Below are positions 13,310 to 59,347 of a stretch of DNA of 64,000 nt, piece after piece. This DNA comes from an uncultured Methanosarcinales archaeon (GTDB lineage: Archaea > Nanobdellota > Nanobdellia > Woesearchaeales > ARS49), in the NCBI GenBank assembly GCA_964637115.1, contig CAZWVL010000006.1:1-64000 (forward strand), read 5' to 3'. Both the position numbers and the translations under genes were made by a program. Numbering within the stretch: position 1 is the first letter of the stretch; each line of letters starts with the position of its first letter. The notes under the pieces are model-generated. The model did not search any database and was not told the origin of the DNA. It was given only the letters and a program-made list of their open reading frames with translations.

Positions 13310-14758
13310 ATGTGGAATTATAAAAAAATTGGTCGCAAACATGTAATTCTTGCTTCTGTGATGCTGATTAACTTTTTACTAATCCTGTATACGAGCCAAA
13401 TAACACTCCGCAATTTTCAAAATTCTGCGGATGAACACATACAATATTTGACAGCGCAGATGTTCGCGAATGGAAAACTTACTGTTCCCGCACCAAACCA
13501 CAGCGAATTTTTCAAAGCATTTCACCTGATGATTGAAAATGGAAGAGCTTATGGAGTATTTCCTGCGGGATGGCCTCTTTTCTTGTCGATCGGAATGCTG
13601 TTTAATGCGCCATGGTTAGTAAACCCAATATTTGGAACTTTAACTTTATTACTCGTTTTTTTGATTGCCGTAAAACATTTTTCCAAGCGTGTTGCAATTA
13701 TTTCAATTACAATAACTCTTTTCAACCCATTTTTCATTTTCAATTCCGCATCATATTTCACACATCCAACAGCGCTTCTTTTTGTCACATTATTTGTTTA
13801 CTTTTACATGAATTGCCTCGATAACCCCAATAAAAAATCCAATTATTTAATGATGGGCCTGGCAAGTGGATTTGCCTTTCTAGCAAGGCCATTTACCGCA
13901 ACGGTCGTTATAGTGCCACTGGGAGTTTACTTGATTTACTTTTTTATTAAAAGCAAAAACGTGAAAATATTTTTTAAGAATTGTATGATTCCAATCATCG
14001 TTTTTTCGTTTTTCCTGACTTTTTATTTGTGGTACAATGACCATCGCACAGGCTCTCCTTTCCTTGATCCAGAAAAAAAGTTGTACCCTTGCGTAATACC
14101 ATTGTCTTCAAAGTGTCCATTCGGCATATCTAAAGCTTTAGAAATTACAATTTCTAGAATCGAACTGTTGAATTTATGGATGCCAATTGTTATGATTTTT
14201 GTATTTTTTTATATTTTCAAAAGACGAAAGACCACCAAAGAAAAAATTCTTTTGCTCATTCCTGCTTTTCTTATAGGCGGATACTTTGTTGACCTCGTAT
14301 CAGCCGGAAATCAATATGGTCCACGTTTTTGGTACGAATCATTTTCTGCTCTCATTCTTATAACTGCGTTGGGCGTTAATTCTTTTAAAAAAAAGAAAGT
14401 AATTGCTGGAATTATTGCGATTTTCTTGATTTTTAACATTGGCTTTTTTTATTACCAAATTTCAATATATGGACCAATGGTCATCGAAAGGACTGAAATC
14501 TTTGACCTTGCAAAAAAAGGAAATCTTACAAACGCGATTGTCTTTTTGAAAACTGGATCAGGCAACATGAATCCACCTGATTTAATCAGAAATAGCATTT
14601 ATTTCAATCAATCGGTATTATACGTTTATGATCTTGGCGATAAAAATACTGATTTAATTAAAGATTTTCCTGATAGAACGTATTACTATTGGATATTTGA
14701 TTCCAGCACGCAGAAAGGGCTGTTTGTTCCATACACTAATTTTACCGTGAATAACTGA
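13310..14758 (+). CDS. GT-C fold polytopic glycosyltransferase (ArnT/PMT-like)
   Basis: Multiple TM segments, SADE acidic motif in the first loop, GPRFWYE. Confidence 0.78.
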   Translation: MWNYKKIGRKHVILASVMLINFLLILYTSQITLRNFQNSADEHIQYLTAQMFANGKLTVPAPNHSEFFKAFHLMIENGRAYGVFPAGWPLFLSIGMLFNAPWLVNPIFGTLTLLLVFLIAVKHFSKRVAIISITITLFNPFFIFNSASYFTHPTALLFVTLFVYFYMNCLDNPNKKSNYLMMGLASGFAFLARPFTATVVIVPLGVYLIYFFIKSKNVKIFFKNCMIPIIVFSFFLTFYLWYNDHRTGSPFLDPEKKLYPCVIPLSSKCPFGISKALEITISRIELLNLWMPIVMIFVFFYIFKRRKTTKEKILLLIPAFLIGGYFVDLVSAGNQYGPRFWYESFSALILITALGVNSFKKKKVIAGIIAIFLIFNIGFFYYQISIYGPMVIERTEIFDLAKKGNLTNAIVFLKTGSGNMNPPDLIRNSIYFNQSVLYVYDLGDKNTDLIKDFPDRTYYYWIFDSSTQKGLFVPYTNFTVNN

Positions 14759-14813
14759 CAGCGATTAAGAACATAAGCATACAAAATTTTATATAAGGTA
14801 TCCATAGTGTCCT

Positions 14814-15872
14814 TTGAAGGGGGTGGAAAAGGTGAATTGGACAGCTAAACGAGTGCTTGTGACAGGAGGAGCTTCATTCATAGGCTCGCACCTTGTTGAT
14901 TCACTAGTTGCACTTGGAGCAAAAGTAAGAATAGTAGATGACCTGTCAAGCGGCAAACTTCACAACATTCAAACACATTTAGACAAAGGCGTGGTTGAAT
15001 TCAAAAACGCAAATCTGCTTCACCACAATGTTGCCAAAGAAGCAATGAAAGACATTGATATTGTATTCCACCTCGCTGCAAACCACGGCGGAAGAGGATA
15101 TGTTGATTTACACCAAGTTGCGTGTGCAACTAATTTCAGACTGGACAGCCACGTCTTTGAAGAAGCAGCACAATCAAGTGTTGAAAAAGTAGTGTTTGCA
15201 TCCACAGGATGCGTATATCCAAATTACAAACAGCAAGACCTAAGCAAGGAAATTTACCTTAAAGAAGAAGATGTCGGGCCACCATATGACGCAGACAACA
15301 CATACGGATGGGCCAAGTTGATGGCTGAATTGACATTGAAGGCTTACCACAAGGAACATGGACTAAAATCGGCATCGTGCAGATTTTTTACAGTTTATGG
15401 AGAACGAGGAGTTGAAAATCACGCAATCATGACAATGATTGCACGTGCATTTACCAAAAAAGATCCATTCGAAGTGTGGGGTACGGGAGAACAATTGCGC
15501 AACTGGACATACGTCGGAGATATTGTGCGTGGAACGATTCTTGCTGCGGAGAAAATTGATGATTCGAGCGCAGTTAATCTGGGAACAACTGAACGAATAC
15601 GCGTGCTTGATGCGGTAAAAATGATAATTGAACACGTCAAGAACAATTATTATTCTGATTATTCGCCAACAATCAAAACCCTGCCACACATGCCGACTGG
15701 CCCGCTAAATAGAATAGCTGACAACTCACGCTCGAAACAAATACTTGGTAACTGGCAGCAAGTAAGCTTCAAGGAAGGCCTCCACAAGACAATAAAGTGG
15801 TATTTTGCGAACAAGAAACACGAACATGTTGAAGAAATATTTGCAAAGAATAAGATCACTGAAAGAATATGA
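14814..15872 (+). CDS. NAD-dependent nucleotide-sugar epimerase/dehydratase (extended SDR)
   Basis: VLVTGGASFIGSHLVD, FASTGCVYP, YGWAK (YxxxK), GEQLRNWTYVGD. The start may be the GTG about 5-7 codons downstream. Confidence 0.9.
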   Translation: MKGVEKVNWTAKRVLVTGGASFIGSHLVDSLVALGAKVRIVDDLSSGKLHNIQTHLDKGVVEFKNANLLHHNVAKEAMKDIDIVFHLAANHGGRGYVDLHQVACATNFRLDSHVFEEAAQSSVEKVVFASTGCVYPNYKQQDLSKEIYLKEEDVGPPYDADNTYGWAKLMAELTLKAYHKEHGLKSASCRFFTVYGERGVENHAIMTMIARAFTKKDPFEVWGTGEQLRNWTYVGDIVRGTILAAEKIDDSSAVNLGTTERIRVLDAVKMIIEHVKNNYYSDYSPTIKTLPHMPTGPLNRIADNSRSKQILGNWQQVSFKEGLHKTIKWYFANKKHEHVEEIFAKNKITERI

Positions 15873-17338
15873 AAAATACAGATTTGGCCCTTAAGTTCTC
15901 TAAATTGCTCTTGATTGCCACGGCTATTTTCTTTGTCATCGTCTACATTTTTGTGGCTTTATCGCGCATATCATATCCATTTCAGCTTGAAGCAGCTGAA
16001 GGACAATCTCTTGTGCAAGTGCAAAGAATAATTGCTGGTGAACCATATTACGTTAATCCGTCCTTAGAATACATAACTACGGCATATACGCCTTTGTACT
16101 TTTACTTTGCCGCATATATTGCAAAAATTATTGGCGCCACCTTCCTGCCACTTCGTTTATTATCATTCGTGTCATCTCTCGGCTGTCTTATTCTTATTTT
16201 TTTGATTGTAAAACGAGAAACAAAAAACAATTTTCCAGGAATCGTAGCTGCAGGAATGTTTGCTGCTATGTTCAAGATTGGCGGCGCGTGGTATGATATT
16301 GGACGTGTGGACTCACTGTTTCTATTCTTTCTGCTGCTCGGATTGTATTTCTTAAAAACAGGCAACTGGAAATCACAAGTACTTGCCGGAATATTCATTG
16401 CGCTGTCATTCCTGACAAAGCAGACAACTGCTGTCATTTCATTGCCATTAATTCTATACGCCATTATTGCCAACCGGAAACGTTCTGTTTTTTTCATAAG
16501 TTCATATGGAGCACTTGCCGGGGCAGGAACATTGTTAATCTATCTTTTCAATAAAGACTGGTTTTTCTATTACTTTCTTTCGGCCGGGAGGCACGCTGTT
16601 TTGAAGAACAGATTGATTGATTTTTGGACGCAAGACATTTTCATGCTACTGCCTATTGCGTGTGTTCTAATTATATACTATTTTTACAAAAATCGAGGAA
16701 ATCTGCCATCAAACATTTACTTTTTAGCGACAGTTGGGATGATGACAGGAGCATACATCTCAAGGATAGATATCGGCGGGTACAATAACGTATTGTTACC
16801 TGCCTATGCATCCATCGCCATACTTATTGGATTGACAGTCGACTTTATTGAGAAGACCAGCACAAGCATGTCTAAAATAGCTTTGACTTGCCTGCTTTTT
16901 GTTCAGTTTGCTTTGCTCTTGTATTTCCCAGCTAATTTAATACCGACAAAACACGATGCACAAATGGGACATCAGCTTGTTGATATGATATCAAAATTTG
17001 ATGGCGACGTATTCATTCCAAATCATCCCTATATTCTGAGCATGGCTGGCAAGAAAGGTCATGCGTACTCAGGAACCATATTTGACGCGCTAACTTTTAA
17101 AAAAAGGGTATTGGGGGACAAAATCCAAAAAGAAATTGAAGCTGCAATAAGCAATAAGCGATTCAGTGCCATAATATTAGACAATTATTTCATGGGGCTT
17201 GCAATTTTTTTGCCTACGATAGAAAAACATTACACTAAGAAGGGACTGGTGTTCCAGGAACCTGGATTCATGACTGTTACTGGATTGCCAATGCGGCCTC
17301 AAGATATATATGTCCCTGTTAATGCCTCCACAACATGA
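15869..17338 (+). CDS. GT-C fold polytopic glycosyltransferase
   Basis: Multiple TM segments, YPFQLEAAEG, YTPLYFY, GRVDSL, TKQ. Confidence 0.75.
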   Translation: MKNTDLALKFSKLLLIATAIFFVIVYIFVALSRISYPFQLEAAEGQSLVQVQRIIAGEPYYVNPSLEYITTAYTPLYFYFAAYIAKIIGATFLPLRLLSFVSSLGCLILIFLIVKRETKNNFPGIVAAGMFAAMFKIGGAWYDIGRVDSLFLFFLLLGLYFLKTGNWKSQVLAGIFIALSFLTKQTTAVISLPLILYAIIANRKRSVFFISSYGALAGAGTLLIYLFNKDWFFYYFLSAGRHAVLKNRLIDFWTQDIFMLLPIACVLIIYYFYKNRGNLPSNIYFLATVGMMTGAYISRIDIGGYNNVLLPAYASIAILIGLTVDFIEKTSTSMSKIALTCLLFVQFALLLYFPANLIPTKHDAQMGHQLVDMISKFDGDVFIPNHPYILSMAGKKGHAYSGTIFDALTFKKRVLGDKIQKEIEAAISNKRFSAIILDNYFMGLAIFLPTIEKHYTKKGLVFQEPGFMTVTGLPMRPQDIYVPVNASTT

Positions 17339-18126
17339 AGAACCCTCAAGCGAGCATAATAACTGTAGTGCGGAATGGCGAGCATCTGATTGAGCGAACC
17401 ATTAAAAGCATAATAAATCAAACCTTTACTGATTTTGAATACATAATAATCGACGGTGCTTCAACGGACGGCACTGTTAACGTAATAAAAAAATATCAAA
17501 AACACATTTCACACTGGATCAGCGAGCCAGACAAATCGCATTTTGATGCCATGAATAAAGGGCTCAAAATGGCCAAGGGAAAATATGTATGGTATATTCA
17601 TGCAGGAGATGAGATTTGTTATAAAAACACGCTTGAAAGAATATTTTCGCAAAACCAAAATGCCGATGCCTATTATGGAGAAACTGTTTTGACAAACATG
17701 AACGGTGATGAAGTAGATACTTTTAGGCGCAGAGCACCTGAACAACTAAGTTGGAAGAAAATGAACAGGGGAATGGCAGTATGCCATCAGTCTTTCATAA
17801 TAAAAAAGGAACTTGCTCAACAATATGATTACAAAAACTTTCCATATAGCGCTGATCACGATTGGATAATAAAATGCCTTAAGCAATGCAGCAGTGTAGT
17901 AAATACAAAAATGATTTTGTCAAGGTTTCTGGCAGGCGGAATCTCAAAGAAGCATAAAATGGCATCATGGCTAGAACGCTTCAGACTGTTGTCCAAACAT
18001 TTTGGTCTTGCCAGAAGCATCACAAATCATTTCATAATTACTGCAACATATCCAGTACGAATATTCAGGCCATCGCCTGCACAACTGCGCGAGGAACTCA
18101 ATGCCAAAAATAAAATTTTCGATTAA
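17335..18126 (+). CDS. GT2 glycosyltransferase
   Basis: SIITVVRN, IIIDGASTDGT, SEPD...DAMNKG, CHQSF, ADHDW. Confidence 0.92.
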   Translation: MKNPQASIITVVRNGEHLIERTIKSIINQTFTDFEYIIIDGASTDGTVNVIKKYQKHISHWISEPDKSHFDAMNKGLKMAKGKYVWYIHAGDEICYKNTLERIFSQNQNADAYYGETVLTNMNGDEVDTFRRRAPEQLSWKKMNRGMAVCHQSFIIKKELAQQYDYKNFPYSADHDWIIKCLKQCSSVVNTKMILSRFLAGGISKKHKMASWLERFRLLSKHFGLARSITNHFIITATYPVRIFRPSPAQLREELNAKNKIFD

Positions 18127-18973
18127 TATTATCACTTACAACAGGCTGACTGACCTCAAAAAAACACTCAACACGCTTCTTAAACAAATAGACAACACCT
18201 GCGAGATAATAATCACTGATAATTCTACCAACAATAAAACAAAGGAATTTATCAAAAGTCAAAAGATTTCTGCAATCAGATATTTTGAAAACAAAAACAA
18301 CAACATTGCCTTGGCCCGCAATATAGGCATCAGGAAATCCCGCGGGCAGTATATTGTTTCAGTTGACGACGATTGCATTCCACAACAAAATTGGTTCAAA
18401 ATGGTCAAAAAATACTCCAAAGCATCAGATGCCATTGCAGGAAAAGTGGTCATACCGCGCTCTACCTTTCTCGGGAATGCAATTTCCGCACTCGGCTTTC
18501 CTGCAGGCGGAGCTTTGGGATTTGAGAAAATGTGGAAGGTGGACAAGACCGGCACATCTTCACACATTAGTTTATGCAACAGCATAATCAAAAAAAACAT
18601 AATAACAAGAGTTGGAATGTTTGATGAACAATTCAAATATGGTGCGGAGGACACGGAGCTAGCAGCAAGATTGATCAAAAGAGGGTATACGATAAAATAT
18701 GTCCCGCAATTGATTGTGCAGCACAAACCGCGCACAAACTTGAAAGGATTTGTATCGTGGCATATAAACCGAGGAAAAAGCAATTATTACCTAAAACAGA
18801 AAATGGGCAGGTTGGACGAGTATTTCAAGATGCGCGTGCACTCAACGCTTCTCATTCTCAACACATACAAATTCAAAAAAGAAATCATCTTGATTCCATT
18901 TTTACTTGCATTATACGTTGCATCACAACACTACGGCTATCTCAGTGAAAAAATCAGAAACGAATTCAAATAA
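18101..18973 (+). CDS. GT2 glycosyltransferase
   Basis: IIITDNS, ARNIG, VDDDC (DxD), FDEQFKYGAEDTEL. Confidence 0.92.
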   Translation: MPKIKFSINIITYNRLTDLKKTLNTLLKQIDNTCEIIITDNSTNNKTKEFIKSQKISAIRYFENKNNNIALARNIGIRKSRGQYIVSVDDDCIPQQNWFKMVKKYSKASDAIAGKVVIPRSTFLGNAISALGFPAGGALGFEKMWKVDKTGTSSHISLCNSIIKKNIITRVGMFDEQFKYGAEDTELAARLIKRGYTIKYVPQLIVQHKPRTNLKGFVSWHINRGKSNYYLKQKMGRLDEYFKMRVHSTLLILNTYKFKKEIILIPFLLALYVASQHYGYLSEKIRNEFK

Positions 18974-19892
18974 TTCTCCTAATTCTGTACGGTTTTTTGT
19001 TCTGACTGACATAATCCACTCTCACAAGCATGCTGGCAAGAAGACCTAAAATCACGAACTGCAAGCCAACAAGAAGAAGTCCAACTGATAAAAGGGGCAA
19101 GATGCTCTTTGTCAAATACTTAATCTCCAGCAAGCGCAGAATTAGAAGAACAACGCCCAGCAAAACACCAATTATGCACATCATAAAACCAACTGTTCCA
19201 AAAAAATGCAGAGGTCTTGTTTCAAAAGTTGACCACAATTTAACATCAATAAGGTCAAGAAAACCGCGCAAAAGAGTTATTGTGCCGTATTTGCTGCGGC
19301 CGTACATTCTGGGATGGTGATTTATCTGCACTTCACCAATTGAATAACCTTTTTTAAAAAGTATGGCTGGAATGTAACGGTGAAGCTCACCATATAAAGA
19401 CAAATCTTCCACTGCTTCTCTTTTGTAAGCTTTCAGGCCGCAATTGGAATCATGAATGGGTACGCTAAACAATTTTCTTTGCAAGTGGTTGAAAAGCTTG
19501 GAAGCTGCAATCTTGCCAGCCTTATCCCTTCTCTGCCTGCGCCAGCCGGAAACAACATCGTAATTCTTCAGACCTTGAATCAAAAGAGGGATATCTTTTG
19601 GATCGTTTTGCAAATCGCCATCAATAGTGATTATGATATCTCCTTTTGCAAGGTCAAAACCTGCTCTCAAAGCAGCGCTTTTGCCGAAATTGTGAGGAAA
19701 GTCTATTATTCGCACATTTTTTCCACTCTTCTTTACTTTCATCAAATTCGCCAAAGTGCCATCGCGCGAGCCATCATTAACAAAGATAATTTCATAATTG
19801 CCAAGTCCGTGCATCACTGAATTAAGCGCATCATATAGAGGACTAATGTTGGCTTCTTCATTATATACAGGCACCACCACAGAATATTTCAT
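18966..19892 (-). CDS. GT2 polyprenol-phosphate glycosyltransferase (DPM synthase/ArnC-like) with 2 C-terminal TM
   Basis: SVVVPVYNEE, VNDGSRDGT, NFGKSAAL.AG, TIDGDLQNDP, DSNCGLKAY, HRYIP. Start set at ATG 19892 (MKYS). Confidence 0.92.
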   Translation of the reverse strand: MKYSVVVPVYNEEANISPLYDALNSVMHGLGNYEIIFVNDGSRDGTLANLMKVKKSGKNVRIIDFPHNFGKSAALRAGFDLAKGDIIITIDGDLQNDPKDIPLLIQGLKNYDVVSGWRRQRRDKAGKIAASKLFNHLQRKLFSVPIHDSNCGLKAYKREAVEDLSLYGELHRYIPAILFKKGYSIGEVQINHHPRMYGRSKYGTITLLRGFLDLIDVKLWSTFETRPLHFFGTVGFMMCIIGVLLGVVLLILRLLEIKYLTKSILPLLSVGLLLVGLQFVILGLLASMLVRVDYVSQNKKPYRIRRII

Positions 19893-20001
19893 CACTACTT
19901 TCAAGTGCAGAGGCGTATAAAAGCATTTACAGACATTAGTATATGCATTGCCAGATATACTAATCAATAAATTTATTAAAGCGATTTAATGCTGACACGT
20001 C

Positions 20002-21552
20002 ATGAAGTCTGATTTTTTTCACAGACATGAAAGGAAGATCGTCATCTTATTACTGTGCATTTTTGCAGTACAGGTTCTCAATGAAATTTTCACATATTTT
20101 GAAACATACGATGAACGCGGCAACATAAATGCCGGGTATCAATATCTTAAAACAGGCGAAACAAATATAGGCCCTGCAAACCCCATATTGCCACGCATAC
20201 TTAATGCGTTGCCTGGCCTGATTTATTACAACACTAATCCTCCAACTCAATGGGGCGATAACCCCTTTGGGCCGAATTTTAAAACTGTTTTGATAATATC
20301 AAGAATAAAAACACTCATCTTCGGAATAATTTTGGGAATTCTGGTTTACTTGTTGGCAAAAAAGCTTTTTGGAATAGATGCGGCTCTTCTCGCACTCTTT
20401 TTTTACGCCTTTGAGCCCAACATTCTTGCTCATTCCAGTCTAGCAACTACTGATATTTTGATTACATTCTTTATTTTTGTTTCAGTAATTTGTTTCTATA
20501 AATTCCTTCTAGTGCCTTCAATTAAATCAAGTATTATTGCAGGCATCACTCTTGGACTGGCGCTCATATCAAAATTCACAGCAATACTTCTCATTCCTGC
20601 CTTTTTTTTGCTTGCCATTCGTTTTTGCGGGACCAGAAGCAAAAAACAATATTGTGGTCTGTTTGCAATTATCTTAATCTCATCGCTTTTTGTCATCAAT
20701 GTAGCATACCTTTTCAAAGGAACATTCGTGCCTCTTGAAGCGCAAGGATTGCAATCAAATCTGTTTACAAAATTGCCTGAATTTTTGAAAAAAATGCCGG
20801 CTCTTCTGCCAACAAACTATCTACGAGCGCTTGACTATGTCCAGGGACCTCATGCAGATTTCCCTACTGCATATCTATTCGGCAGATATTCTGAAAAAGG
20901 CTTTTGGTATTATTACATTGTGGCGTTTTTTATTAAAACACCCATACCATTGATTTTATGCATCATAATAGGACTGATTTTACTATCTAGAGATAAAAAA
21001 ATAAATGAGTTGCTGATTCTGCTTTCCCCAGTTGTTGTCTTTTTTATTTTCTTCATGTTCTTTAGCCACAAAAACATAGGTTTGCGTTACATCCTGCCAG
21101 TCTACCCTTTCCTGATAATCGTTGCCGGAACAAGCATAAACTGGCTGCGAAAGAAAAAGATTCTTCTGTACTTTTTTTGTGCATCGTACGTTTTATCTGC
21201 ATGGATGATAGCACCAAACCACATTGCCTATTTCAATGAATTCGTGGGAGGCCCTTCAAACGGGTACAAATACCTTATTGACTCCAATCTTGACTGGGGC
21301 CAAGGAGAAATGATGGTCTGGCATTACATGAATAGGGCTGGCGTTCCAGTGATAAAAAATCCCGGGTGCGAATATACTCCAGGCAGAATAGTCGTAGGTG
21401 CAAATTTTTTAGCGGATTTGTTCACAGAAAATAAGCAATGTCATGAATGGCTCAGAAACTTTACTCCAATAACACATGTTGGATATGCTAATTTGGTGTA
21501 TGAGGTGCCAGAAAGGACAAATGAAACAAAAATCAATGCGACAAGCGAATGA
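20002..21552 (+). CDS. GT-C fold polytopic glycosyltransferase (ArnT-like); paralogue of 22743
   Basis: TYDERG, EPNILAHSSLATTD, SKF, GLRYILP, DSNLDWGQ. Confidence 0.82.
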   Translation: MKSDFFHRHERKIVILLLCIFAVQVLNEIFTYFETYDERGNINAGYQYLKTGETNIGPANPILPRILNALPGLIYYNTNPPTQWGDNPFGPNFKTVLIISRIKTLIFGIILGILVYLLAKKLFGIDAALLALFFYAFEPNILAHSSLATTDILITFFIFVSVICFYKFLLVPSIKSSIIAGITLGLALISKFTAILLIPAFFLLAIRFCGTRSKKQYCGLFAIILISSLFVINVAYLFKGTFVPLEAQGLQSNLFTKLPEFLKKMPALLPTNYLRALDYVQGPHADFPTAYLFGRYSEKGFWYYYIVAFFIKTPIPLILCIIIGLILLSRDKKINELLILLSPVVVFFIFFMFFSHKNIGLRYILPVYPFLIIVAGTSINWLRKKKILLYFFCASYVLSAWMIAPNHIAYFNEFVGGPSNGYKYLIDSNLDWGQGEMMVWHYMNRAGVPVIKNPGCEYTPGRIVVGANFLADLFTENKQCHEWLRNFTPITHVGYANLVYEVPERTNETKINATSE

Positions 21553-21795
21553 ATCAACAGAATCTAAAAAGCTGTCCGGGTTTCAGATGGCTATTCTGAT
21601 TGCCATCAGTCATTCATAATCAAAAAGGACTTGGCAGTGACATATGATTACCATAGTTATCCAATTTGCGCAGATTTCAACTGCACCGTCTCCATTTATT
21701 TATCATCGCAACATGCATACCCAGCTATTAAGAAAGTCGCCGGTTCAATTAAGGAAAATGCTGAATGAATTGGCACATAATAAAACACGTAATTT
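21521..21795 (+). pseudogene. Composite deletion scar: 5' end of a 24296-like GT-C fused to fragments of a 17335-like GT2
   Basis: KLSGFQMAILIAI matches the start of 24296. CHQSFIIKKDLAVTYDYHSYPICAD matches CHQSFIIKKELAQQYDYKNFPYSAD of 17335, and SPVQLRKMLN matches SPAQLREELN. The first junction is at the shared TGCCATC (21601-21607). Confidence 0.85.
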
Positions 21796-36052: not shown

Positions 36053-36061
36053 AGGGATGGC

Positions 36062-49463: not shown

Positions 49464-50150
49464 TCATTTTTCAAAAATGGCGAGGATTATCAAACCGAAT
49501 TTGCCCGTTATTTCTTTTTCTAGTTTTACTAGCTTTTTTGCTAATCCATAAGAGATTAAAGCTATGAATGGAGTGAATAGAAATAACGTCTTCATTTCGA
49601 TAAGTTTAAAGCCATTAGTTTCTCCTAATTTCTTGAGACTTGCTAACGTTTGTGGATTAATGTGCTGTTCCTCGTACTTCACAGGACTTATAAACTCCCA
49701 CATGTGCTCTACAATAGGCCACATGCTTCTATAATTGGGTGTTGTGATAATAAGTTTCCCTCCTTTGCGAAGCGCTTTGTAAATGTTTTGCATTATTTTT
49801 GTATCTGGATTCAAGTGCTCAAGCACCTGAGACAAAATAACATAATCTGCTTTTGGAAGTTCACAGTTTTCTATGTCCGAACATATCCATTTTACGTCTG
49901 GCATTATCTTTTTAACATAGTCAATTTGCGATTGCGCTACGTCTATACCAATCTTCTTTGCTCTCTTCTTGTGTTGGAAAAAGAAAGCACCAGGACCACT
50001 CCCCAAATCTAAAACTGTAAGAGCAGGATTTTCAGGTATACGTGCAGAAATCTGGGAAAAATGATACTGATGCCAGAAGCGCTGAAGATTGCCACCTTCG
50101 GTCATAACTTTGAGATAATAGCCTTCAGGAATAGAGTCGTAAATGTCCAT
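49464..50150 (-). CDS. Class I SAM-dependent methyltransferase
   Basis: VLDLGSGPG, GID, QVLEHL, L..GG.LIITTPNY. Confidence 0.9.
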   Translation of the reverse strand: MDIYDSIPEGYYLKVMTEGGNLQRFWHQYHFSQISARIPENPALTVLDLGSGPGAFFFQHKKRAKKIGIDVAQSQIDYVKKIMPDVKWICSDIENCELPKADYVILSQVLEHLNPDTKIMQNIYKALRKGGKLIITTPNYRSMWPIVEHMWEFISPVKYEEQHINPQTLASLKKLGETNGFKLIEMKTLFLFTPFIALISYGLAKKLVKLEKEITGKFGLIILAIFEK

Positions 50151-51981: not shown

Positions 51982-52085
51982 TTTTTCAAGGACCGACAGA
52001 ATTATCAACCAACTGCTCCTGTTATCTTTTCTTCAAATTTTGCTAGCTTTTTTGTTAAACTATAAGAAATCATTGCAAGAAATGA
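51982..52085 (-). pseudogene. 3' remnant of a paralogue of the 49464 methyltransferase, with a 1-nt frameshift
   Basis: SFLAMISYSLTKKLAKFEEKITGAVG / LIILSVLEK versus PFIALISYGLAKKLVKLEKEITGKFGLIILAIFEK; GGT TTG ATA has become GGT TG ATA. Confidence 0.82.
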
Positions 52086-52110
52086 CGAGATCCCAGTAAA
52101 TTTCAAAAGG

Positions 52111-53664
52111 TTACCTTGCTTTCTTACCTTTTCCAGAAATCTCGATTACATCCACACTGTAGAAGATTGTGGGGCTATTGTGACTTCCGAAACCAAGATA
52201 CTTTTCATTGCGAAGTTTTAACAAATTATTCAAACCAAGTTCCTTATATTCGGCTTTCCATTCTGTTAATAGTGTATTATCTAGATATGCCTTTATACCA
52301 TTCTTACGTACCTGAATTAGTGATGCGTATCTTTTCCCATTTTCAAGGCGACCTTTTTTAATCGATGGATTATCGCTTCCATCACCTTTTAATACTGTAA
52401 ACCCAAATAAATTGCCGTCGTCCCCGGCAGACATCTGCCAGTGGAAAGGTTTTCCTGAACGTGATAAACACTGAAAAACATCATGACTTCCTTGTTGTCT
52501 CGCAAATGCTAACCTAAAATCGTACTCTTCAGGCGGCTCGTATGGAATTTCTATTCTCGCCAAGCTAGAACCATCAGAAACTAGTTTGCCTTCTTGCAAT
52601 TTCCATTCTCCGCTGATGACGTCCTTTTTAAGATCAATCATCTTCAACAAATCAACCAGATTTCCTTTGGTTGCTGACTGTTTGACTTCCTTCAACAGTT
52701 CATCAATCTTTTCCTTCTGAATTGCATTTGCGTTTGGAAGGGCAGTGTTGCACCATCTAACAACGCCATCTTCGTACAACCCTTTGTCTGCAAGGTTTTT
52801 CTGCTTCTTGGAAATTTCAAAGTATTTCCCTGCAAGAGCAAACTGCATATCGGACGTTTTGGGGCTCATAACTTCCAAGTTGATGAGAGTTTTCAAATCC
52901 TCGTTATTTCCATTGGCCATTGTTTTCTTGGCATCGTCCCATTTGCCGCATCTCAAGCCCCGATATTGAGCCCAAACATTGCTTGCGTTTGCGTCTTTCT
53001 CATCAACTGACAATTTAAGCTCTGCAGTCTTGACCTTTTCAGCGTCTGCACTCAAATCCATGCTTTTTTGCTTCAATTCCTTTGAAAGCTTTGGCAAACC
53101 CTTAATATCAGAGGATAATTTGGAAACAGAAACGAAATCACCAACACGATAAATCCCTTCGGCCAATTCAAACCCTGACTCGGCAACCGCAGCTGCCTGC
53201 TCTTCACTCGTAACAAACCTGCGTGCAACGTTGAACATTTCGTACTTCAGGTTAAGATCTCTAATTTTGTATGACTCCACGATTTTCGTATCAACAATAC
53301 CAAAAGCTTTTGACAAATCAGTAGCCTCGGCAGCAACGCGCGCTGCTTCCTTGAAATAGGAAAAACGAAGTTTTGAGTCATTCTTAGGATCTTGAGCTTT
53401 TTCTATTAACAAATCAGCAAGCTTGACCTTTTCCCCTTTAACATACGCTTCCCTGTAAGACGCGCTGCCTTTAATCTGAGACTCGTTATAACGCTGAGTG
53501 TTCTCATCAGGAACTTCATCCTTTTGTTTTTGCTCCTGTGCAGGTTTTTGATCCTGACCAGGCTTTGGATCCTGGGCTTCAGAACTAAGTGACGGTACAA
53601 CGACGAGGCCTACGAATGCGAGGCCCCTTAATACATCTTCCAAACTTTTAATGAATCCACCCAT
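52111..53664 (-). CDS. Secreted hypothetical protein: helical N-part plus C-terminal beta-sandwich (DUF1080/lectin-like)
   Basis: N-terminal hydrophobic segment, then VDLLKMID...GEW...ARIEIPYEPPEEYDF...LENGKRY. Start set at ATG 53664 from promoter spacing. Confidence 0.6.
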   Translation of the reverse strand: MGGFIKSLEDVLRGLAFVGLVVVPSLSSEAQDPKPGQDQKPAQEQKQKDEVPDENTQRYNESQIKGSASYREAYVKGEKVKLADLLIEKAQDPKNDSKLRFSYFKEAARVAAEATDLSKAFGIVDTKIVESYKIRDLNLKYEMFNVARRFVTSEEQAAAVAESGFELAEGIYRVGDFVSVSKLSSDIKGLPKLSKELKQKSMDLSADAEKVKTAELKLSVDEKDANASNVWAQYRGLRCGKWDDAKKTMANGNNEDLKTLINLEVMSPKTSDMQFALAGKYFEISKKQKNLADKGLYEDGVVRWCNTALPNANAIQKEKIDELLKEVKQSATKGNLVDLLKMIDLKKDVISGEWKLQEGKLVSDGSSLARIEIPYEPPEEYDFRLAFARQQGSHDVFQCLSRSGKPFHWQMSAGDDGNLFGFTVLKGDGSDNPSIKKGRLENGKRYASLIQVRKNGIKAYLDNTLLTEWKAEYKELGLNNLLKLRNEKYLGFGSHNSPTIFYSVDVIEISGKGKKAR

Positions 53665-53696
53665 TCTCGTCACTGGATAGTGTATATGCACTCACG

Positions 53697-53757: not shown

Positions 53758-53802
53758 GTAACATTTATATAACAGTTGTTATTATTTAATTACAAATGTT
53801 AC
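53758..53802. promoter_or_regulatory. TATA box of the MNT gene within nested inverted repeats (candidate operator)
   Basis: GTAACATTT (53758-66) / AAATGTTAC (53794-802); inner ATAAC-agtt-GTTAT (53769-82); TTTATATA at 53764-71. Confidence 0.55.
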
Positions 53803-54320
53803 AAAATAATAACAAATATAGGGTGCTGAAGCTCTTTTTCGAGCAGCCGACAACAGACTTCCAATTGCGGCAAATCAGCAGGCTTGTGAAGATTGCCCCG
53901 CCTTCAACAAAGAAGTATCTTCAGGAATTGGAGGCAGAAGGACTTGTCGCGAAATCAAAGAAGGGAATCTACCCAAGTTATCGCGCAATACGCGATGCTA
54001 ACTTGTTTAAAGGCCTGAAAAAATGGTCGCTGGCAATCGAGTTTACTAAAAGCGGATTACTAGACCATATTGCGGACAAATGCGGCCCTGATGCCATCAT
54101 CCTATTTGGAAGCGCAAGCCGCGGCGAAGACATCGAGAGCAGCGACATCGACCTTGCCATCCTTGCTGAAGAAACCGAGCTTGATCTTAAAAAATATGAA
54201 AAGCTCATCAGCCGCAAGATTTCCCCGCTGTTTGTCAAAAAATTCAGCGAACTCAGCAACGAACTCAAAAATAATATTTTAAACGGCATCATCCTTTACG
54301 GCTATCTGAAGGTGTTTTAA
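53796..54320 (+). CDS. wHTH-minimal nucleotidyltransferase (MNT) antitoxin-like protein
   Basis: N-terminal ArsR-like HTH; FGSASRGEDIESSDIDL (GS..DxD). Confidence 0.88.
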   Translation: MLQNNNKYRVLKLFFEQPTTDFQLRQISRLVKIAPPSTKKYLQELEAEGLVAKSKKGIYPSYRAIRDANLFKGLKKWSLAIEFTKSGLLDHIADKCGPDAIILFGSASRGEDIESSDIDLAILAEETELDLKKYEKLISRKISPLFVKKFSELSNELKNNILNGIILYGYLKVF

Positions 54321-54730
54321 TGGAAGACCTCATCAAAATGACCCCAAACCCTGAACGAGCAAAGAACCTGCTCGCACAGACTGAAATCAGACTAAAAGAT
54401 GCGAAAAACAAAGATCCTGCAGAGTACGCCACACTCATTATTGAAGCATACTATGAAGTCATCAAGGAACTTCTGACTGCGCTTCTTGCAGCAGATGGCT
54501 ACAAGACGCTAAGCCATACCACGCTCATCGATTATCTCCGCGCGACATACAACAAGCAAATTACTGAACACGAAACCCAAAGTATTGATGAACTCAGGAA
54601 AACCAGAAACCGTATCGCCTACGAAGGATTTGTCATCAAGAAAGATTATCATGACCGCAAGGCACCGATTGCGCTTGAAATCATAACAAAATTGAAAACA
54701 CTAGTAACAAGTAAAATCAAAGAAAAATAA
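54320..54730 (+). CDS. HEPN-domain protein (toxin partner of MNT)
   Basis: AYYE...ELL.A, GYK..SH, LRK.RNRIAYEG (R-x4-Y); its start overlaps the MNT stop. Confidence 0.8.
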   Translation: MEDLIKMTPNPERAKNLLAQTEIRLKDAKNKDPAEYATLIIEAYYEVIKELLTALLAADGYKTLSHTTLIDYLRATYNKQITEHETQSIDELRKTRNRIAYEGFVIKKDYHDRKAPIALEIITKLKTLVTSKIKEK

Positions 54731-54735: not shown

Positions 54736-55080
54736 CTACCCCAGCCCAATAAACGAAACCCCTGCTATAATGCACACTATGCCGGCCCATTTCAGCCGGT
54801 TCATGCGCTCCTTGAGCATTATGATTGACAAGATGCACACAACTGGGTAAGTAATGGAAACAAGCGGGTAAAGCAGGGAAAGCTCGCCACCGCGCAATGC
54901 AAGAAGATAAATGATTGTTGCAACACCATACAGGAAGATGCCTGCAATCAGGTGCTTGTTCCTCAAAATATGTTTAGGATGAAGCGAGCCATCAGTGCCT
55001 TTCTTCAGCAAGATGGGCCCAAAAGCTCCAACAGCTACAGAAAGCAACGTCAAACCAACAGCCCACCATTCAGTTGCCAT
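54736..55080 (-). CDS. Small 4-TM EamA/SMR (ArnE/ArnF-like) protein
   Basis: About 114 aa, GELSLLYPL.S.TY, E; start set at ATG 55080. Confidence 0.82.
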   Translation of the reverse strand: MATEWWAVGLTLLSVAVGAFGPILLKKGTDGSLHPKHILRNKHLIAGIFLYGVATIIYLLALRGGELSLLYPLVSITYPVVCILSIIMLKERMNRLKWAGIVCIIAGVSFIGLG

Positions 55081-55423
55081 TTTTCCTGCTCCCGAAACCA
55101 ATCAAAGAGATTCCGACAATAATTGCAGCACTGCCAACCCAGCGCATTGGAGATACTTGTTCATTCAGATAAATAATCGCAAGAATGTTCGTCCAAATGT
55201 ACGAAGTGGCAATAATTGGGTACAAAACACTCACTTCGCCATTGCGCATTGCAAGCAAGAACAACATCAAACCAAAACCATAACTTGCAAAACCAACAAA
55301 CAACTGCCAGTTTGTAAAGATTGCCGGCAGAAGGTTTGCGCCAAGCTTGTAGAACAATTGGCCAATTGCAGTAAATACGGTGCAAAAAATCATAATAACA
55401 ATTGCACGCCCTTTTGTCGCCAT
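55070..55423 (-). CDS. Small 4-TM EamA/SMR (ArnE/ArnF-like) protein
   Basis: 117 aa, GEVSVLYPI.A.SYIW, E; overlaps its paralogue. Confidence 0.82.
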   Translation of the reverse strand: MATKGRAIVIMIFCTVFTAIGQLFYKLGANLLPAIFTNWQLFVGFASYGFGLMLFLLAMRNGEVSVLYPIIATSYIWTNILAIIYLNEQVSPMRWVGSAAIIVGISLIGFGSRKNGN

Positions 55424-55543: not shown

Positions 55544-55810
55544 ATGGAACAAACAACCATTTTACACAGCCCAACATTAGAATCCGTGATTATGGTAGAA
55601 AAGACAATACAAAAGTACAGCCAAGAATGTGGAAAATATCAATTATGGAAAAAGCTGCCCAAAAAAATGATGTATCAGACTTTCCAAACAATCCTTGCAT
55701 ATTTAGAAGAGTCCGGAAAGATTATGATAGATAAAGATGGTTGCATCATTTGGACCTACAATCCTGAAAGAATCAAAAAGCTGATTTCTAGTGGAGTTAA
55801 AATACGGTGA
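55544..55810 (+). CDS. Small winged-helix protein, probable antitoxin (88 aa)
   Basis: Real start MEQTTILHSPTL at 55544 after a TATA box (the tracked 271-aa ORF is over-extended); GTGA overlap with the next gene. Confidence 0.72.
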   Translation: MEQTTILHSPTLESVIMVEKTIQKYSQECGKYQLWKKLPKKMMYQTFQTILAYLEESGKIMIDKDGCIIWTYNPERIKKLISSGVKIR

Positions 55811-56145
55811 ACAATAAGCCAGTACACGTCACTTTTGGCGAAAAGAAAATTGAGAAAGAATTTGAAGAGTTGAAAGAAGGCAAATTTGAGGACAAGCAAT
55901 TATACAATTTTATTGACAGGGCGATTAAAGATTTGAAATCCAACCCGATGTGTGGAACAAAAATTCCAAAAAATTTGTGGCCACAAGAATATATACAAGA
56001 ATACGAAATTACTAATTTGTGGAAATATGATTTACCCAATGGCTGGAGGTTGATTTATACAATTCAGACAAATGAAGTAATGATTTTGAATGTAATTCTT
56101 GAGTGGTTTAATCATAAGGATTACGAGCGCAAGTTTAAATACTAA
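55807..56145 (+). CDS. RelE/ParE-superfamily toxin-like protein
   Basis: 112 aa; L..NP..G..I, LWKYDLP.GWRLIYTI, H..YE. Confidence 0.75.
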   Translation: MNNKPVHVTFGEKKIEKEFEELKEGKFEDKQLYNFIDRAIKDLKSNPMCGTKIPKNLWPQEYIQEYEITNLWKYDLPNGWRLIYTIQTNEVMILNVILEWFNHKDYERKFKY

Positions 56146-56186: not shown

Positions 56187-57623
56187 ATGAAAGTCATTCT
56201 TGCACTCATCGTCTGCTTATTTGCAGCCATAGCATACGCACACGAAGCAGACAACATAATTCACATCACTGACGTAGGGTTTGTACCGTCAAAACTGGAA
56301 ATAGAACAAGAAATGACGGTAGAGTTTGAAAACATTGGCAAGAATCCGCACTGGCCGGCATCAAACATACACCCAACACACGAGATTTATTCAGAATTTG
56401 ACCCGAAAGACGTCATACAGCCAGGAGAAAGCTGGAGTTTTACTTTTGACAAGGCAGGCGAATGGAGATTCCACGACCACGCTTATCCGGAATTCATAGG
56501 AACAATAATCGTAATTGAGAAGGACAGTTTCCTGAATTCTGTCAAAGGCTTCTTTACAGACATCTTCAAATCGCCGCTAATAACCGCTTTGATTTTCTGG
56601 GACGGTGAAGAAATCAGCCCATACAACGAATCAATTGAAATAACTTCTGAAGACATCTTCCGCAATGACAGCCAGCTTTACTCTTATATCAAAAAGTTCG
56701 GAGTGAAGCAAACAACAGCGTTCCTGCACCAGCTTGAAGGAAAACATGGTGATTGCCATCAGACCGCACACCGGCTGGGCAGATTTGCGTACCAGTTATA
56801 CGCCAATGATGTATTCCAGCAATGCTCGATTGAATGCCACTCAGGATGCTACCATGGCGCCATAGAGTATTATTTCAAAGAATACGGCACAACAGACATA
56901 CCAACAGCCCTGAACACGATATGCGGAAACCAAGAAAACGGGTTTTTCGCACACCAATGCTTCCACGGAATAGGCCACGGGCTAATGGCGTGGACAGACT
57001 ATGAACTGCTAGAAGCATTACAAAAATGCGACTTATTGCAAGATGGCAAAAATTCCTGTTACACAGGAGCCTTCATGGAAAACGTTGTTGCATCACTCGC
57101 AGAAAATAAAAGCACGCACGTAAGCAAATACGTAAATGACGATCCTCAATATCCGTGTTCAATAGTGGAAGACAAGTACAAATGGGACTGCTACTTCTTC
57201 CAAACAGCAAGAATGAAAGAAATATTCAACAATGACTTCAGGAAAGTGGCAGAAGCGTGCGCTGACGCGCCGGAAGCATATCAACGAAACTGTTTTGAAA
57301 GCATGGGAAGAGACATCAGCGGAAATACCATAATGAATGTTGACAAGTCAATAGAACTCTGCCAGTCAGCTCCGCCAAAAGGACCGAGAATCGCCTGCCT
57401 AAAAGGAGCAGTGCAAGACATGTTCTGGGATTCATCAGGACAAGACAAATCACTCAGTTTCTGCAAAAAACTCACAGATTTAAACGAGAAATCCGAATGT
57501 TATAATACAATATTTGAACGAGCGCCGCTTGTAATAAGTTCACAAGAAGAATTGAAAATGTTCTGTGAAAAGGCAGAAGAAAGATATCAAAACTCTTGCT
57601 TAACACAGACACACCTAGAATGA
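56187..57623 (+). CDS. Secreted cupredoxin-like plus Cys/His-rich protein (paralogue 2)
   Basis: Signal AYA-H19; WPASNIHPTH, FHDH; CHQTAHRLG, CYHGAIE, CFHGIGHG, CYTGAFMEN. Confidence 0.8.
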   Translation: MKVILALIVCLFAAIAYAHEADNIIHITDVGFVPSKLEIEQEMTVEFENIGKNPHWPASNIHPTHEIYSEFDPKDVIQPGESWSFTFDKAGEWRFHDHAYPEFIGTIIVIEKDSFLNSVKGFFTDIFKSPLITALIFWDGEEISPYNESIEITSEDIFRNDSQLYSYIKKFGVKQTTAFLHQLEGKHGDCHQTAHRLGRFAYQLYANDVFQQCSIECHSGCYHGAIEYYFKEYGTTDIPTALNTICGNQENGFFAHQCFHGIGHGLMAWTDYELLEALQKCDLLQDGKNSCYTGAFMENVVASLAENKSTHVSKYVNDDPQYPCSIVEDKYKWDCYFFQTARMKEIFNNDFRKVAEACADAPEAYQRNCFESMGRDISGNTIMNVDKSIELCQSAPPKGPRIACLKGAVQDMFWDSSGQDKSLSFCKKLTDLNEKSECYNTIFERAPLVISSQEELKMFCEKAEERYQNSCLTQTHLE

Positions 57624-59347
57624 GAATATCACTTGCATTGCTCATTGGAGGCATACTCTCAGGGATTGTTTCTTCAACACTTTATTATTTGCGTGGTTAT
57701 CATCATGGAATACTGGGCCTTTTTTTAGCCTCACTTTTTCTAACAGGAGCTTACTTTTTCCTGAAAAGAACAAGAAAAAAATCACGATTCAATAAATACG
57801 ATACTGCAGCAGTCGCAATTTTGCTGCTGATATTTGCGCCACTTTATCTTGCGTTTATTTACACCATTCCATGGCAAGTTGGTTCGGATGAAGTAACGAT
57901 TATGATAACAGAAAGGAATACGATCTATAGAGATAATTTCGATCCTTTTGGAATCAGCTCCTACTTCGGGTTTCCCAGTCTAGTATTTCTAACATTTGGG
58001 TGGCTAGGGAAGATCACTGGGGGAATTGACTTGTTGCACATGCGAACAATTCACGCTGTCAGTGGACTGGCAGTCATCCTATTGGGTTATTTCCTGTTCC
58101 GAACAGGCCTGTCAAGACCGCTTTCATTTGTTGGAGCAGTAATCCTAGGCTCAAACCACTCACTCCTTGCAATAAGCAGAATGGCAATGAGAGACAATAC
58201 CGGACTTCTCATCGAAGTTGCTGCCTTAACAGTCTTGTTAATTGGACTTCAACGAAAATGCCAATTTTATACTTTTCTAGGAGGACTCATCGCCGGACTC
58301 TCATTCTACGTCTATTATCCAGGCAGGATAACCATAATCGCGTGGTTTGCGTTCTTGGCAATGACTGCGTTATTTATCCGCAAGACCTCATTTAGAGAAT
58401 TAACCAAACTAGGCATAATAGCGCTTCTTGGATTTGCCATGGTTGCAAACCCAATCATGCTAGCTACAGTGAAGGCGCAAGATTTAGCACTTAAGTTTCA
58501 AAGAGAACAGCTGCTGATTTTTCCTGAAGGCAGAGAATTACTGAAACCGTGGTATGCAACAAATACAACCTATGAAGGGGTCAAAACTAACATGATTTAT
58601 GGACTCACCGCATTTAACAATGAAGTAGACGACCACGGCTGGATTTACTCAAACTACAAGCACGGCTTTGTTGACCCATTAACCGGAATTCTTATCTGGA
58701 TCGGACTGGCAACAATCTTGTTCGAGTTATTCTCTAAGAGAGAATTGCAAAATATTGAACTGTTGTCAGTGGCAGGATTTCTTATTTTATGGTTACTACT
58801 AAGCTTTGTCGTGGGCAAAAGCCCCAATTATACACGCCTTCTCGTGATATTACCTTTTGTTGCAGTACTTGTTACCAAAGCCATAGGCACGATATCAAAT
58901 TTCACCAACGCCAAAATAGGAAAATTGCGCGCGAGCAACGTTTTATTCGCATTATTTGTCATAATCATCTTTTTCTGGAATCTGGGAATATTATCTGATT
59001 ATGTCAAACGCGTATTTTCTGAAGGCAATGACATAGGCGGAACAGCCAGATACATAGAAGAACGAAAAGGCATTGCGAACTATACTTTTTATTTCGCGGA
59101 GAGCGGTCAATACACATACTATGTCTGGGGTATGAAATGGCACGAGTTTTTTGTTGATCCGACACAACAATCAATAATAATTTCACCAGAATCTGCAATT
59201 GAGTCGATAAGACAACTGCCTTTCACTATTTTCACATCTGAAAGCGGCTGGAAATTGTTTGAAAACCAGACGAGAAACCTTTATCCAAATTTAAACATTC
59301 AAAACATTAAAGCGGATGGAAGTTTGCTTGCAATAGAAGTACAGTAG
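57620..59347 (+). CDS. GT-C fold glycosyltransferase (ArnT-like)
   Basis: VGSDE, FGFPSL, SR..MRD, Y.YYPGR; ATG 57620 overlaps the upstream TGA. Confidence 0.8.
   Translation: MRISLALLIGGILSGIVSSTLYYLRGYHHGILGLFLASLFLTGAYFFLKRTRKKSRFNKYDTAAVAILLLIFAPLYLAFIYTIPWQVGSDEVTIMITERNTIYRDNFDPFGISSYFGFPSLVFLTFGWLGKITGGIDLLHMRTIHAVSGLAVILLGYFLFRTGLSRPLSFVGAVILGSNHSLLAISRMAMRDNTGLLIEVAALTVLLIGLQRKCQFYTFLGGLIAGLSFYVYYPGRITIIAWFAFLAMTALFIRKTSFRELTKLGIIALLGFAMVANPIMLATVKAQDLALKFQREQLLIFPEGRELLKPWYATNTTYEGVKTNMIYGLTAFNNEVDDHGWIYSNYKHGFVDPLTGILIWIGLATILFELFSKRELQNIELLSVAGFLILWLLLSFVVGKSPNYTRLLVILPFVAVLVTKAIGTISNFTNAKIGKLRASNVLFALFVIIIFFWNLGILSDYVKRVFSEGNDIGGTARYIEERKGIANYTFYFAESGQYTYYVWGMKWHEFFVDPTQQSIIISPESAIESIRQLPFTIFTSESGWKLFENQTRNLYPNLNIQNIKADGSLLAIEVQ

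Follow-up and report, generated by a model that had tools for sequence, protein, structure and literature searches.

The window analysed here comprises the first 64 kb of the 87.7-kb contig C6 (CAZWVL010000006.1), which belongs to a 98%-complete archaeal genome of 1.27 Mb. Between positions 13310 and 59347 it carries an island of about 46 kb with 17 intact polytopic open reading frames (ORFs), two donor synthase candidates and one flippase-like gene pair, amid three genes for giant surface proteins. All but one of the polytopic proteins can be assigned to the glycosyltransferases of the GT-C fold class. The 17 ORFs of GT-C type fill 61% of the island and 2.2% of the genome. Small gene overlaps are frequent (15869/17335/18101, 22743/24296 and 29961/32002/33435/35228; genes are named by their lower coordinate), and these overlaps of stop and start codons fit real, co-transcribed genes in operon-like packing. 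With a G+C content of 39.2%, the island lies below both the genome (about 43%) and the giant genes (48-51%). The nearest homologues of the window's proteins carry the names Woesearchaeota or Nanoarchaeota. The genes and gene remnants of the island are listed below with their strands; GT2, GT4, GT22 and GT87 are glycosyltransferase families, and G and L numbers denote genomes and loci used for comparison.

13310-14758 (+): GT-C 1, PMT_2 type, motif SADE, nine hydrophobic blocks; Pfam PMT_2 32.8 bits, above the cut-off.
14814-15872 (+): nucleotide-sugar epimerase/dehydratase of the short-chain dehydrogenase/reductase (SDR) type; Pfam Epimerase 4.9e-48; 86% ortholog in G005.
15869-17338 (+): GT-C 2, PMT_2 type; Pfam PMT_2 55.8 bits.
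17335-18126 and 18101-18973 (+): two soluble GT2; Pfam Glycos_transf_2 1e-22 and 1e-21; NCBIfam EpsD/WcaE-like, below the cut-offs.
18966-19967 (-): candidate polyprenyl-phosphate-sugar synthase of ArnC/GtrB type; PDB matches; three C-terminal hydrophobic segments.
20002-21552 (+): GT-C 3, PMT/PMT_2/GT22 type (Pfam); 55% identical to its paralogue 22743.
21536-21693 (+): intergenic scars (gene fragments); tblastn matches to the N-terminus of GT-C 24296 (71% over 24 amino acids, 5e-5) and to residues 142-180 of GT2 17335 (46% over 39 amino acids, 1e-7).
21824-22681 (+): GT2 with one C-terminal transmembrane helix (Pfam), a possible third membrane GT2; the N-terminal 120 amino acids alone match PDB 6yv7 (family 2 glycosyltransferase).
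22743-24299 (+): GT-C 4, PMT/PMT_2 type (Pfam).
24296-25909 (+): GT-C 5, PMT_2 type; Pfam 42.9 bits; 46% ortholog in G001.
25918-26925 (+): SDR epimerase, GalE/TviC-like (NCBIfam), part of the conserved core; Pfam 8e-65; 59-62% orthologs in G009 and G005.
26896-27621 (-): synthase candidate of the DPMS catalytic-domain type without transmembrane helices, part of the conserved core; Pyrococcus furiosus DPMS 2.4e-17; 60-71% orthologs in G001, G005, G009 and G011.
27647-28933 (-): flavin adenine dinucleotide (FAD)-dependent oxidoreductase beside synthase 26896; Pfam Amino_oxidase; NCBIfam PRK07233 403 bits, above the cut-off; 82% ortholog in G005.
28969-29943 (+): FkbM-family methyltransferase (Pfam); NCBIfam TIGR01444 101 bits.
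29961-32012 (+): GT-C 6 candidate, DUF2298, motif EKFMD; Pfam DUF2298 291.7 bits.
32002-33438 (+): GT-C 7, PMT type; Pfam PMT 58.1 bits; 77% ortholog in G005.
33435-35231 (+): GT-C 8, PMT_2 type (Pfam); 54% ortholog in G005.
35228-37210 (+): S-adenosylmethionine (SAM) methyltransferase (35228-36052) and GT4 glycosyltransferase (36062-37210), both from Pfam.
37263-39233 (-): GT-C 9, PMT_2 type with extra N-terminal transmembrane helices; Pfam 35.8 bits; 42% identical to 39277.
39277-41253 (-): GT-C 10, PMT_2 type with extra N-terminal transmembrane helices; Pfam 49.5 bits.
41402-42715 (-): GT-C 11, GT87/Gpi18-like; GT87 21.7 bits and homologue families.
42740-44050 (+): GT-C 12, ALG9/ALG12-like fold (AlphaFold and Foldseek), no large soluble domain.
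44106-45821 (-): GT-C 13, YfhO-like 'DWD' family; 48% identical to 50174.
45912-47528 (+): GT-C 14, PMT_2 type; Pfam 47.1 bits; 40% ortholog in G009.
47614-49377 (-): GT-C 15, YfhO-like family; weak match to the YfhO C-terminus; 48% identical to 50174.
49464-50150 (-): SAM methyltransferase (Pfam), conserved partner of a YfhO-like GT-C; the pairing is repeated in Woesearchaeota locus L001 (1e-86).
50174-51910 (-): GT-C 16, YfhO-like family (AlphaFold and Foldseek), with D38.
52008-52088 (-): scar, a decayed additional copy of methyltransferase 49464; tblastn 56% over 27 amino acids, 1e-4; DNA self-match.
52111-53691 (-): secreted 526-amino-acid protein without a Pfam family, beside a YfhO-like GT-C here; its homologue is likewise next to the YfhO-like GT-C in L002 (1e-56; L002:3986-5578, a Nanoarchaeia contig); present in G014.
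54736-55101 and 55070-55423 (-): half-size EamA/DMT pair, ArnE/ArnF-like flippase candidate, part of the conserved core; Pfam EamA 35.9 and 37 bits.
57596-59347 (+): GT-C 17, PMT_2 type with extra N-terminal transmembrane helices; PMT_2 borderline in bits; hhalign 91%.

A first-pass annotation, made from the letters of the window, had described 17 polytopic proteins with an acidic motif in the first external loop and had taken them for GT-C enzymes. Exactly 17 such ORFs are present, with 436-683 amino acids and 9-13 hydrophobic blocks, and every motif that it listed is readable after the first hydrophobic segment or the N-terminal transmembrane bundle. An acidic residue is expected by chance in a loop of 40-70 amino acids, so the motif alone proves little and the assignment is carried by fold and family evidence. 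On that evidence, drawn from Pfam, profile comparison, homologue families or fold, the assignment holds for 16 of the 17; the DUF2298 protein 29961 was not linked to GT-C enzymes in this way.

Eleven of the 17 ORFs score above the Pfam gathering thresholds for PMT_2, PMT or DUF2298 in hmmscan. Protein 57596 lies at the border of PMT_2 (24.4 bits in hmmscan and 28.4 bits in a six-frame search of the genome, with a cut-off of 26.1), and it matches the profile of the island's PMT_2 proteins with an hhalign probability of 91%. Protein 41402 reaches 21.7 bits against the whole GT87 model, below the cut-off of 25 bits; its homologues bear the GT87, ALG3 and ALG6/8 families (PF09594, PF05208, PF03155) and are named Gpi18-like mannosyltransferases. 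The proteins 44106, 47614 and 50174 have no usable Pfam match and form one family with 46-48% identity. Of these, 47614 weakly matches the C-terminus of YfhO, and distant homologues of the family bear YfhO. The family, named here for its DWD motif, has 233 relatives in the genome collection, and the D38 of the motif in 50174 is kept in 29 of 29 aligned sequences.

Sequence-only searches of the PDB, with profiles of the YfhO-like and 42740 families and with 29961 and 57596, gave no GT-C enzyme apart from a sub-threshold match to AftD (E 0.8), and fold comparison was therefore needed. It covered two AlphaFold models, that of 50174, standing for the three paralogues, and that of 42740, which has no Pfam match. 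The 50174 model, built with 30 homologues, has a predicted local distance difference test (pLDDT) score of 93.6. Its best Foldseek matches in the PDB are PglB, STT3, AglB, AftA and ArnT (5e-6), and ALG12, AftD and Pmt4 are also found. The 42740 model (pLDDT 89.8) matches ALG12 first (6e-6, TM-score 0.61) and ALG9, then AglB, DPY19, ArnT and EmbC. The top 20-30 PDB matches of both models are GT-C enzymes without exception. Distant homologues of 42740 bear PF03901 or PF13231, and in its family alignment D58 is invariant, D30 is found in 23 of 26 sequences and D69 in 28 of 29. D38 of the DWD family and D30 of this one are the aspartates of the loop motifs listed in the first-pass annotation. Two unannotated families, the YfhO-like 'DWD' family and the ALG9/12-like family of 42740, are thus tied to the GT-C fold. 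At least five GT-C families are represented in the island: PMT/PMT_2, GT87/Gpi18-like, ALG9/12-like, YfhO-like and DUF2298.

Protein 29961 passes the DUF2298 model with 291.7 bits and has a GT-C-like architecture. The glutamate of its EKFMD loop (E130) is invariant and D134 is kept in at least 90% of the family. These features suggest that it is probably a GT-C enzyme as well. DUF2298 is filed in the GT-C clan of Pfam, which is a lead and not a test. Many relatives of 29961 (P0182-P0196) sit in proteins of 2000-2700 amino acids with four to eight matched stretches, apparently giant multi-domain membrane fusions.

The donor side of the island agrees with the first-pass annotation, which had proposed two GT2 enzymes resembling polyprenol-phosphate-sugar synthases and one ArnE/F-like pair; matches to ArnC/GtrB, to the archaeal dolichyl-phosphate-mannose synthase (DPMS) and to EamA confirm these for the island. 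For synthase candidate 18966, full-length matches were obtained to ArnC structures (8e-43), to GtrB sll0501 (6e-33) and to P. furiosus DPMS (2e-19), and the protein reaches 6.9e-44 and 150 bits against NCBIfam PgfS, far under the equivalog cut-off of 500 bits. Candidate 26896 has P. furiosus DPMS as its closest solved relative by sequence. Each EamA protein has four transmembrane helices and scores above the Pfam cut-off; the best NCBIfam matches, ArnF (1.6e-9) and ArnE (2.8e-10), fall far short of the equivalog cut-offs. The tailoring genes comprise those for two SDR epimerases, for three methyltransferases and for one FAD oxidoreductase, and the GT2 enzymes 17335 and 18101 and the GT4 enzyme 36062 resemble ordinary cytoplasmic transferases. 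In G005, too, the FAD oxidoreductase gene accompanies those of the epimerase and the DPMS-like GT2; its product might modify the sugar or the lipid carrier.

The set of GT-C genes differs between sister species. At the DNA level, the island shares with 14 genomes of the same genus mainly the block of 25918, 26896 and the FAD oxidoreductase, the EamA pair, the toxin-antitoxin genes, a cupredoxin-like gene, gene 59352 and the giant gene with a LamG domain. Outside G005, the closest species, DNA matches to GT-C genes are few, short and weak, and the majority of the 17 lack a counterpart at the DNA level in the 14 congeners. The LamG giant gene borders the locus in sister species (synteny in G001, G006, G009 and G011), and protein-level maps of the loci beside it show that the GT2, the epimerase and the EamA pair are retained. 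The orthologues of GT2 26896 are 60-71% identical throughout, and the EamA pair is kept in G006, G011, G014, L001 and L002. The polytopic GT-C-like genes at the syntenic locus are as follows.

G006: none; the EamA pair lies directly beside 59352 and the giant genes.
G011: three.
G009: four.
G001: six.
G005: at least four in a fragmented assembly, with orthologues (54-77%) of the DUF2298 gene, 32002 and 33435.

The complement thus ranges from zero to six at the syntenic locus of the sister species, compared with 17 here, and the invariant gene set that would have spoken against the first-pass annotation was not found. A module of methyltransferase, YfhO-like GT-C, 42740-like GT-C, 26896-like GT2 and EamA pair recurs in the Woesearchaeota/Nanoarchaeia contigs L001 and L002. 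Taken together, the locus is probably a species-variable cell-surface glycosylation island of a DPANN archaeon of Woesearchaeota type, built as a much expanded three-component system for glycosylation outside the cytoplasm.

The 17 GT-Cs might instead act in sequence, each contributing one linkage to the same envelope glycan or lipoglycan on the outer side of the membrane. The arabinogalactan and lipoarabinomannan of mycobacteria arise like this, from about 15 GT-Cs supplied by two lipid donors. Several GT-C families of the island are co-located with cytoplasmic GT2 and GT4 enzymes that could make a lipid-linked primer, 42740 and 41402 resemble enzymes acting on glycan or glycolipid acceptors, and a dense mixed array exists in bacteria (L062, a Caldilineaceae locus with at least seven GT-Cs in 22 kb). 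Conservation would, however, be expected of a core polymer pathway, and the sister-species loci and the DNA comparison show that this set is not conserved. The recent paralogues (42-55% identity) and the remnants of genes indicate turnover. Pfam scans covering every island protein found neither Emb/Aft-type domains nor a DprE-like donor pathway; the likeness to AftA, AftB and EmbC does not go beyond the fold. Sister species do not keep the GT-C set, and a sequential pathway of this kind is for that reason considered unlikely.

The tandem paralogues and scars from which the first-pass annotation had read active turnover are present. The pairs 20002/22743 (55%) and 37263/39277 (42%) and the trio 44106/47614/50174 are paralogues, and tblastn finds three short gene fragments in the island. 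Local duplication and decay have thus taken place inside it. These three paralogue groups and three remnants, together with the low G+C content and the toxin-antitoxin modules within the island, would also fit a stock of duplicated or horizontally acquired GT-Cs of which many have overlapping or lost activity. All 17 ORFs are, however, intact and of full length with the acidic loop residues typical of their families, paralogues of 42-55% identity are old enough to have been purged from a 1.27-Mb genome if useless, and nine of the 17, drawn from different families, are singletons. Redundancy or decay as the explanation of the array is therefore very improbable. An origin of the island in another organism, for example a Candidate Phyla Radiation (CPR) bacterium, through faulty binning or assembly would fit the lower G+C content and the bacterial relatives of some GT-C families, but it is hardly credible for an island that lies within one contig, whose border genes at the high-coordinate side are syntenic in several genomes of the genus and whose core genes are matched there by orthologues of 54-86% (at the low-coordinate side the contig stops within a giant-protein gene), and whose nearest homologues bear Woesearchaeota and Nanoarchaeota names.

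For a species-variable glycosylation island, the homologies of the genes suggest four steps, from which we infer the nature of the donors, their flipping, the acceptors and the biological purpose. In the cytoplasm, the SDR epimerases/dehydratases and the methyltransferases would tailor nucleotide sugars. The ArnC/GtrB-like 18966 and the DPMS-like 26896 would load single sugars on a polyprenyl phosphate, either dolichyl or undecaprenyl-like. The half-size ArnE/ArnF-like EamA pair would then flip the lipid-linked sugar to the outer face, where the 17 GT-Cs would transfer it to different acceptors or positions. The absence of a large soluble domain in the ALG9/12-like and GT87-like members makes glycan acceptors likelier for them, and they may extend glycans or lipid-linked oligosaccharides.

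Candidate protein acceptors flank the island. The three giant surface proteins share a leader and a (TPTS)n linker:

2-2386 (-): giant surface protein, partial, running off the window end.
2557-10539 (-): giant surface protein of 2660 amino acids with SpaA-type repeats; Pfam SpaA_4, 11 copies.
60427-64000 (-): giant surface protein of 2361 amino acids with a LamG domain (full ORF C6:60427-67512); Pfam Laminin_G_3.

The first-pass annotation had credited these proteins with Thr-rich linkers and dozens of sequons. The linkers are present in all three, whereas an excess of sequons is found only in 2557-10539 (50, with 27 expected) and the other two are sequon-poor. The bodies of the three differ (an unknown family, SpaA-type repeats, and LamG with a Cys-rich part), and each starts with a near-identical leader and a (TPTS)n linker with a poly-Pro stretch. 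The common leader and linker look like a shared export or anchoring module. Repeats of (TPTS)n type occur in only eight ORFs of the genome, three of them in tandem at C3:99341-104691.

The closest known case is the Pgf cluster of Streptococcus mutans, where a synthase, an epimerase, two YfhO-type GT-Cs and Ser/Thr-rich adhesin substrates are encoded in one locus (PMC12041528). More widely in streptococci, surface proteins receive sugars in their Ser/Thr-rich regions through a GtrB-type synthase together with YfhO-type GT-Cs (GtrB/PgtC2 in S. pyogenes and S. pneumoniae; PMC12041528). Like the Pgf cluster, the island brings together a candidate GT2 synthase, an epimerase, YfhO-like GT-Cs (three) and Ser/Thr-rich surface proteins (the three flanking (TPTS)n proteins), and transfer would likewise be extracellular. 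By analogy with the Pgf cluster, the PMT_2 and YfhO-like members would most plausibly have the linkers of the three giants as acceptors. The island differs from Pgf in its archaeal host, in its 17 GT-Cs of at least five families against two, in the presence of an ArnE/F-like pair and in the score of 18966 far below the PgfS cut-off.

The general three-component scheme has been reviewed (PMC8035078) and extended (PMC11127046). The GtrA/GtrB/GtrC systems of Shigella and Salmonella phages, ArnC/ArnE-F/ArnT and CsbB/GtcA/YfhO all combine a synthase, a small flippase and a GT-C transferase, and the island has candidates for each of these. In Gtr systems the synthase and the flippase are conserved and interchangeable and the GT-C is serotype-specific, which the conserved core and variable GT-C set of the island mirror. 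The known systems have one GT-C for one synthase and one flippase, whereas the ratio in the island is 17 : 2 : 1. The island encodes synthases of the GtrB/ArnC/DPMS type, and its GT-Cs are encoded together with synthase and flippase candidate, as is also the case at L001, at L002 and in sister species. To our knowledge, archaea have neither lipopolysaccharide nor teichoic acid. Large sets of GT-Cs fed by few lipid-phosphate donors are found in mycobacteria (Emb, Aft, Mpt, PimE) and in the eukaryotic endoplasmic reticulum (ALG, PIG, PMT, STT3), with about 15-20 GT-Cs each. The island resembles these sets at fold level through the matches to AftA, AftB, AftD, EmbC, ALG9, ALG12 and Pmt4. They are conserved and dispersed and have defined products, whereas the GT-Cs of the island sit together within 46 kb and vary among species of one genus.

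GT-C numbers were compared among relatives with PMT_2 matches per genome as a proxy. The source genome has 16 matches, 13 of them inside the window. The 14 genomes of the same genus have a median of 3.5 (range 1-8); the 60 order-level relatives, genus included, a median of 4 (highest 15, then 11); and the 150 phylum-level genomes at least 80% complete a median of 4 and a 90th percentile of 7 (highest 17, in one genome, then 10). Such counts are thus not routine in relatives, the last of the first-pass annotation's own tests; the source genome stands at the upper extreme, and a single sampled genome has more. Single-sequence phmmer searches with the 17 against the genome's own ORFs found only one extra paralogue, and the Pfam search gives the better count. 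The PMT_2 sample and the DNA searches of the genus include the unpublished G010 and G023 (two PMT_2 matches each; no DNA match in G010), and no statement rests on them.

Several findings weaken the first-pass annotation or weigh against reading the island as an expanded, species-variable glycosylation system. Several GT-C copies per genome are normal in the phylum, and two sampled relatives reach 15 and 17 PMT_2 matches. Dense arrays around the YfhO-like family also occur in other lineages (L062, L060 and L007), all of them bacterial; the island differs from these in its archaeal host and in the strong species specificity of its GT-C complement. Outside the island, the genome has four to six further DPMS-like GT2 genes, two of which neighbour other GT-C or AglB genes, so the few loading enzymes of the first-pass annotation describe the island and perhaps not the whole cell, and the island may be supplied with donors beyond those that it encodes. 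The EamA pair could carry something other than a lipid-linked sugar. Protein 29961 matches the island's PMT_2 profile with a probability of only 31-32%, and its profile search of the PDB gave no GT-C match. Five of the (TPTS)n proteins lie away from the island, and the adjacency of the candidate acceptors is therefore no more than suggestive. The comparison of GT-C sets described above is one between species.

A narrower form of the glycosylation reading takes the island for an archaeal protein O-glycosylation machinery. In it, the PMT_2 and YfhO-like GT-Cs would act on the (TPTS)n linkers, and the conserved core of donor and flippase genes would supply a species-specific set of GT-Cs in rapid exchange. 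This set would determine the surface glycotype, which would matter when an episymbiotic archaeon attaches to its host or avoids viruses. We put this forward tentatively, as possible but rather doubtful, and the role in host recognition or virus evasion is speculation. The enzymes of archaeal O-glycosylation are described as unidentified in reviews (PMC6098224, 2018; PMC8241124, 2021). In this locus, candidate O-glycosyltransferases adjoin candidate donor synthases, a putative flippase and three proteins whose linkers are of the textbook O-glycosylation kind, which provides a concrete test set. No paper describing such GT-C arrays in DPANN or CPR organisms was found in the literature, and a DPANN protein-family survey makes no mention of glycosyltransferases. 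The parts and the logic of the system are already known; what is new is the archaeal setting, the 17 : 2 : 1 ratio in one island, and a conserved core with a variable GT-C set beside giant linker-bearing proteins. A GT-C set that occupies 2.2% of a 1.27-Mb genome and changes between sister species while the donor core is kept argues that the surface sugar coat may be a main variable interface of these host-dependent cells.

Two other labels for the island were considered and dropped. It was not filed under N-glycosylation, as both AglB genes lie elsewhere in the genome: the STT3 family model matches the genome only at C2:23597-24754 and C5:38943-40058, with no match in the island. Nor was it called a mobile element, as no tRNA gene and no integrase-family Pfam match are present in the 64-kb window; boundary repeats were not searched for.

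The remaining genes in and around the island are as follows.

10729-12246 (+): secreted Cys-rich protein with an N-terminal cupredoxin-like domain; 31% identical to its paralogue 56187.
53796-54730 (+): nucleotidyltransferase/HEPN pair, toxin-antitoxin-like, located within the island next to the flippase pair; 93% identity in G014.
55545-56145 (+): ParE/YoeB-like toxin and small upstream ORF, inside the island beside the flippase pair.
56187-57623 (+): secreted Cys-rich protein with an N-terminal cupredoxin-like domain, overlapping the start of GT-C 57596; 60% orthologue in G014.

The two toxin-antitoxin-like modules break up the island; G006 and G011 lack them at this place, and the flippase genes there directly adjoin the next conserved gene. 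For the secreted protein 52111-53691, a protein-atlas lead points to DUF1581/3-keto-disaccharide-hydrolase-like proteins of Planctomycetota, and it could be an accessory factor or a substrate. The cupredoxin-like paralogues 10729 and 56187 bracket the island. The start of the first GT-C gene is overlapped, from the opposite strand, by a PhyH-family gene (Fe/2-oxoglutarate dioxygenase-like; 12290-13342, minus strand).

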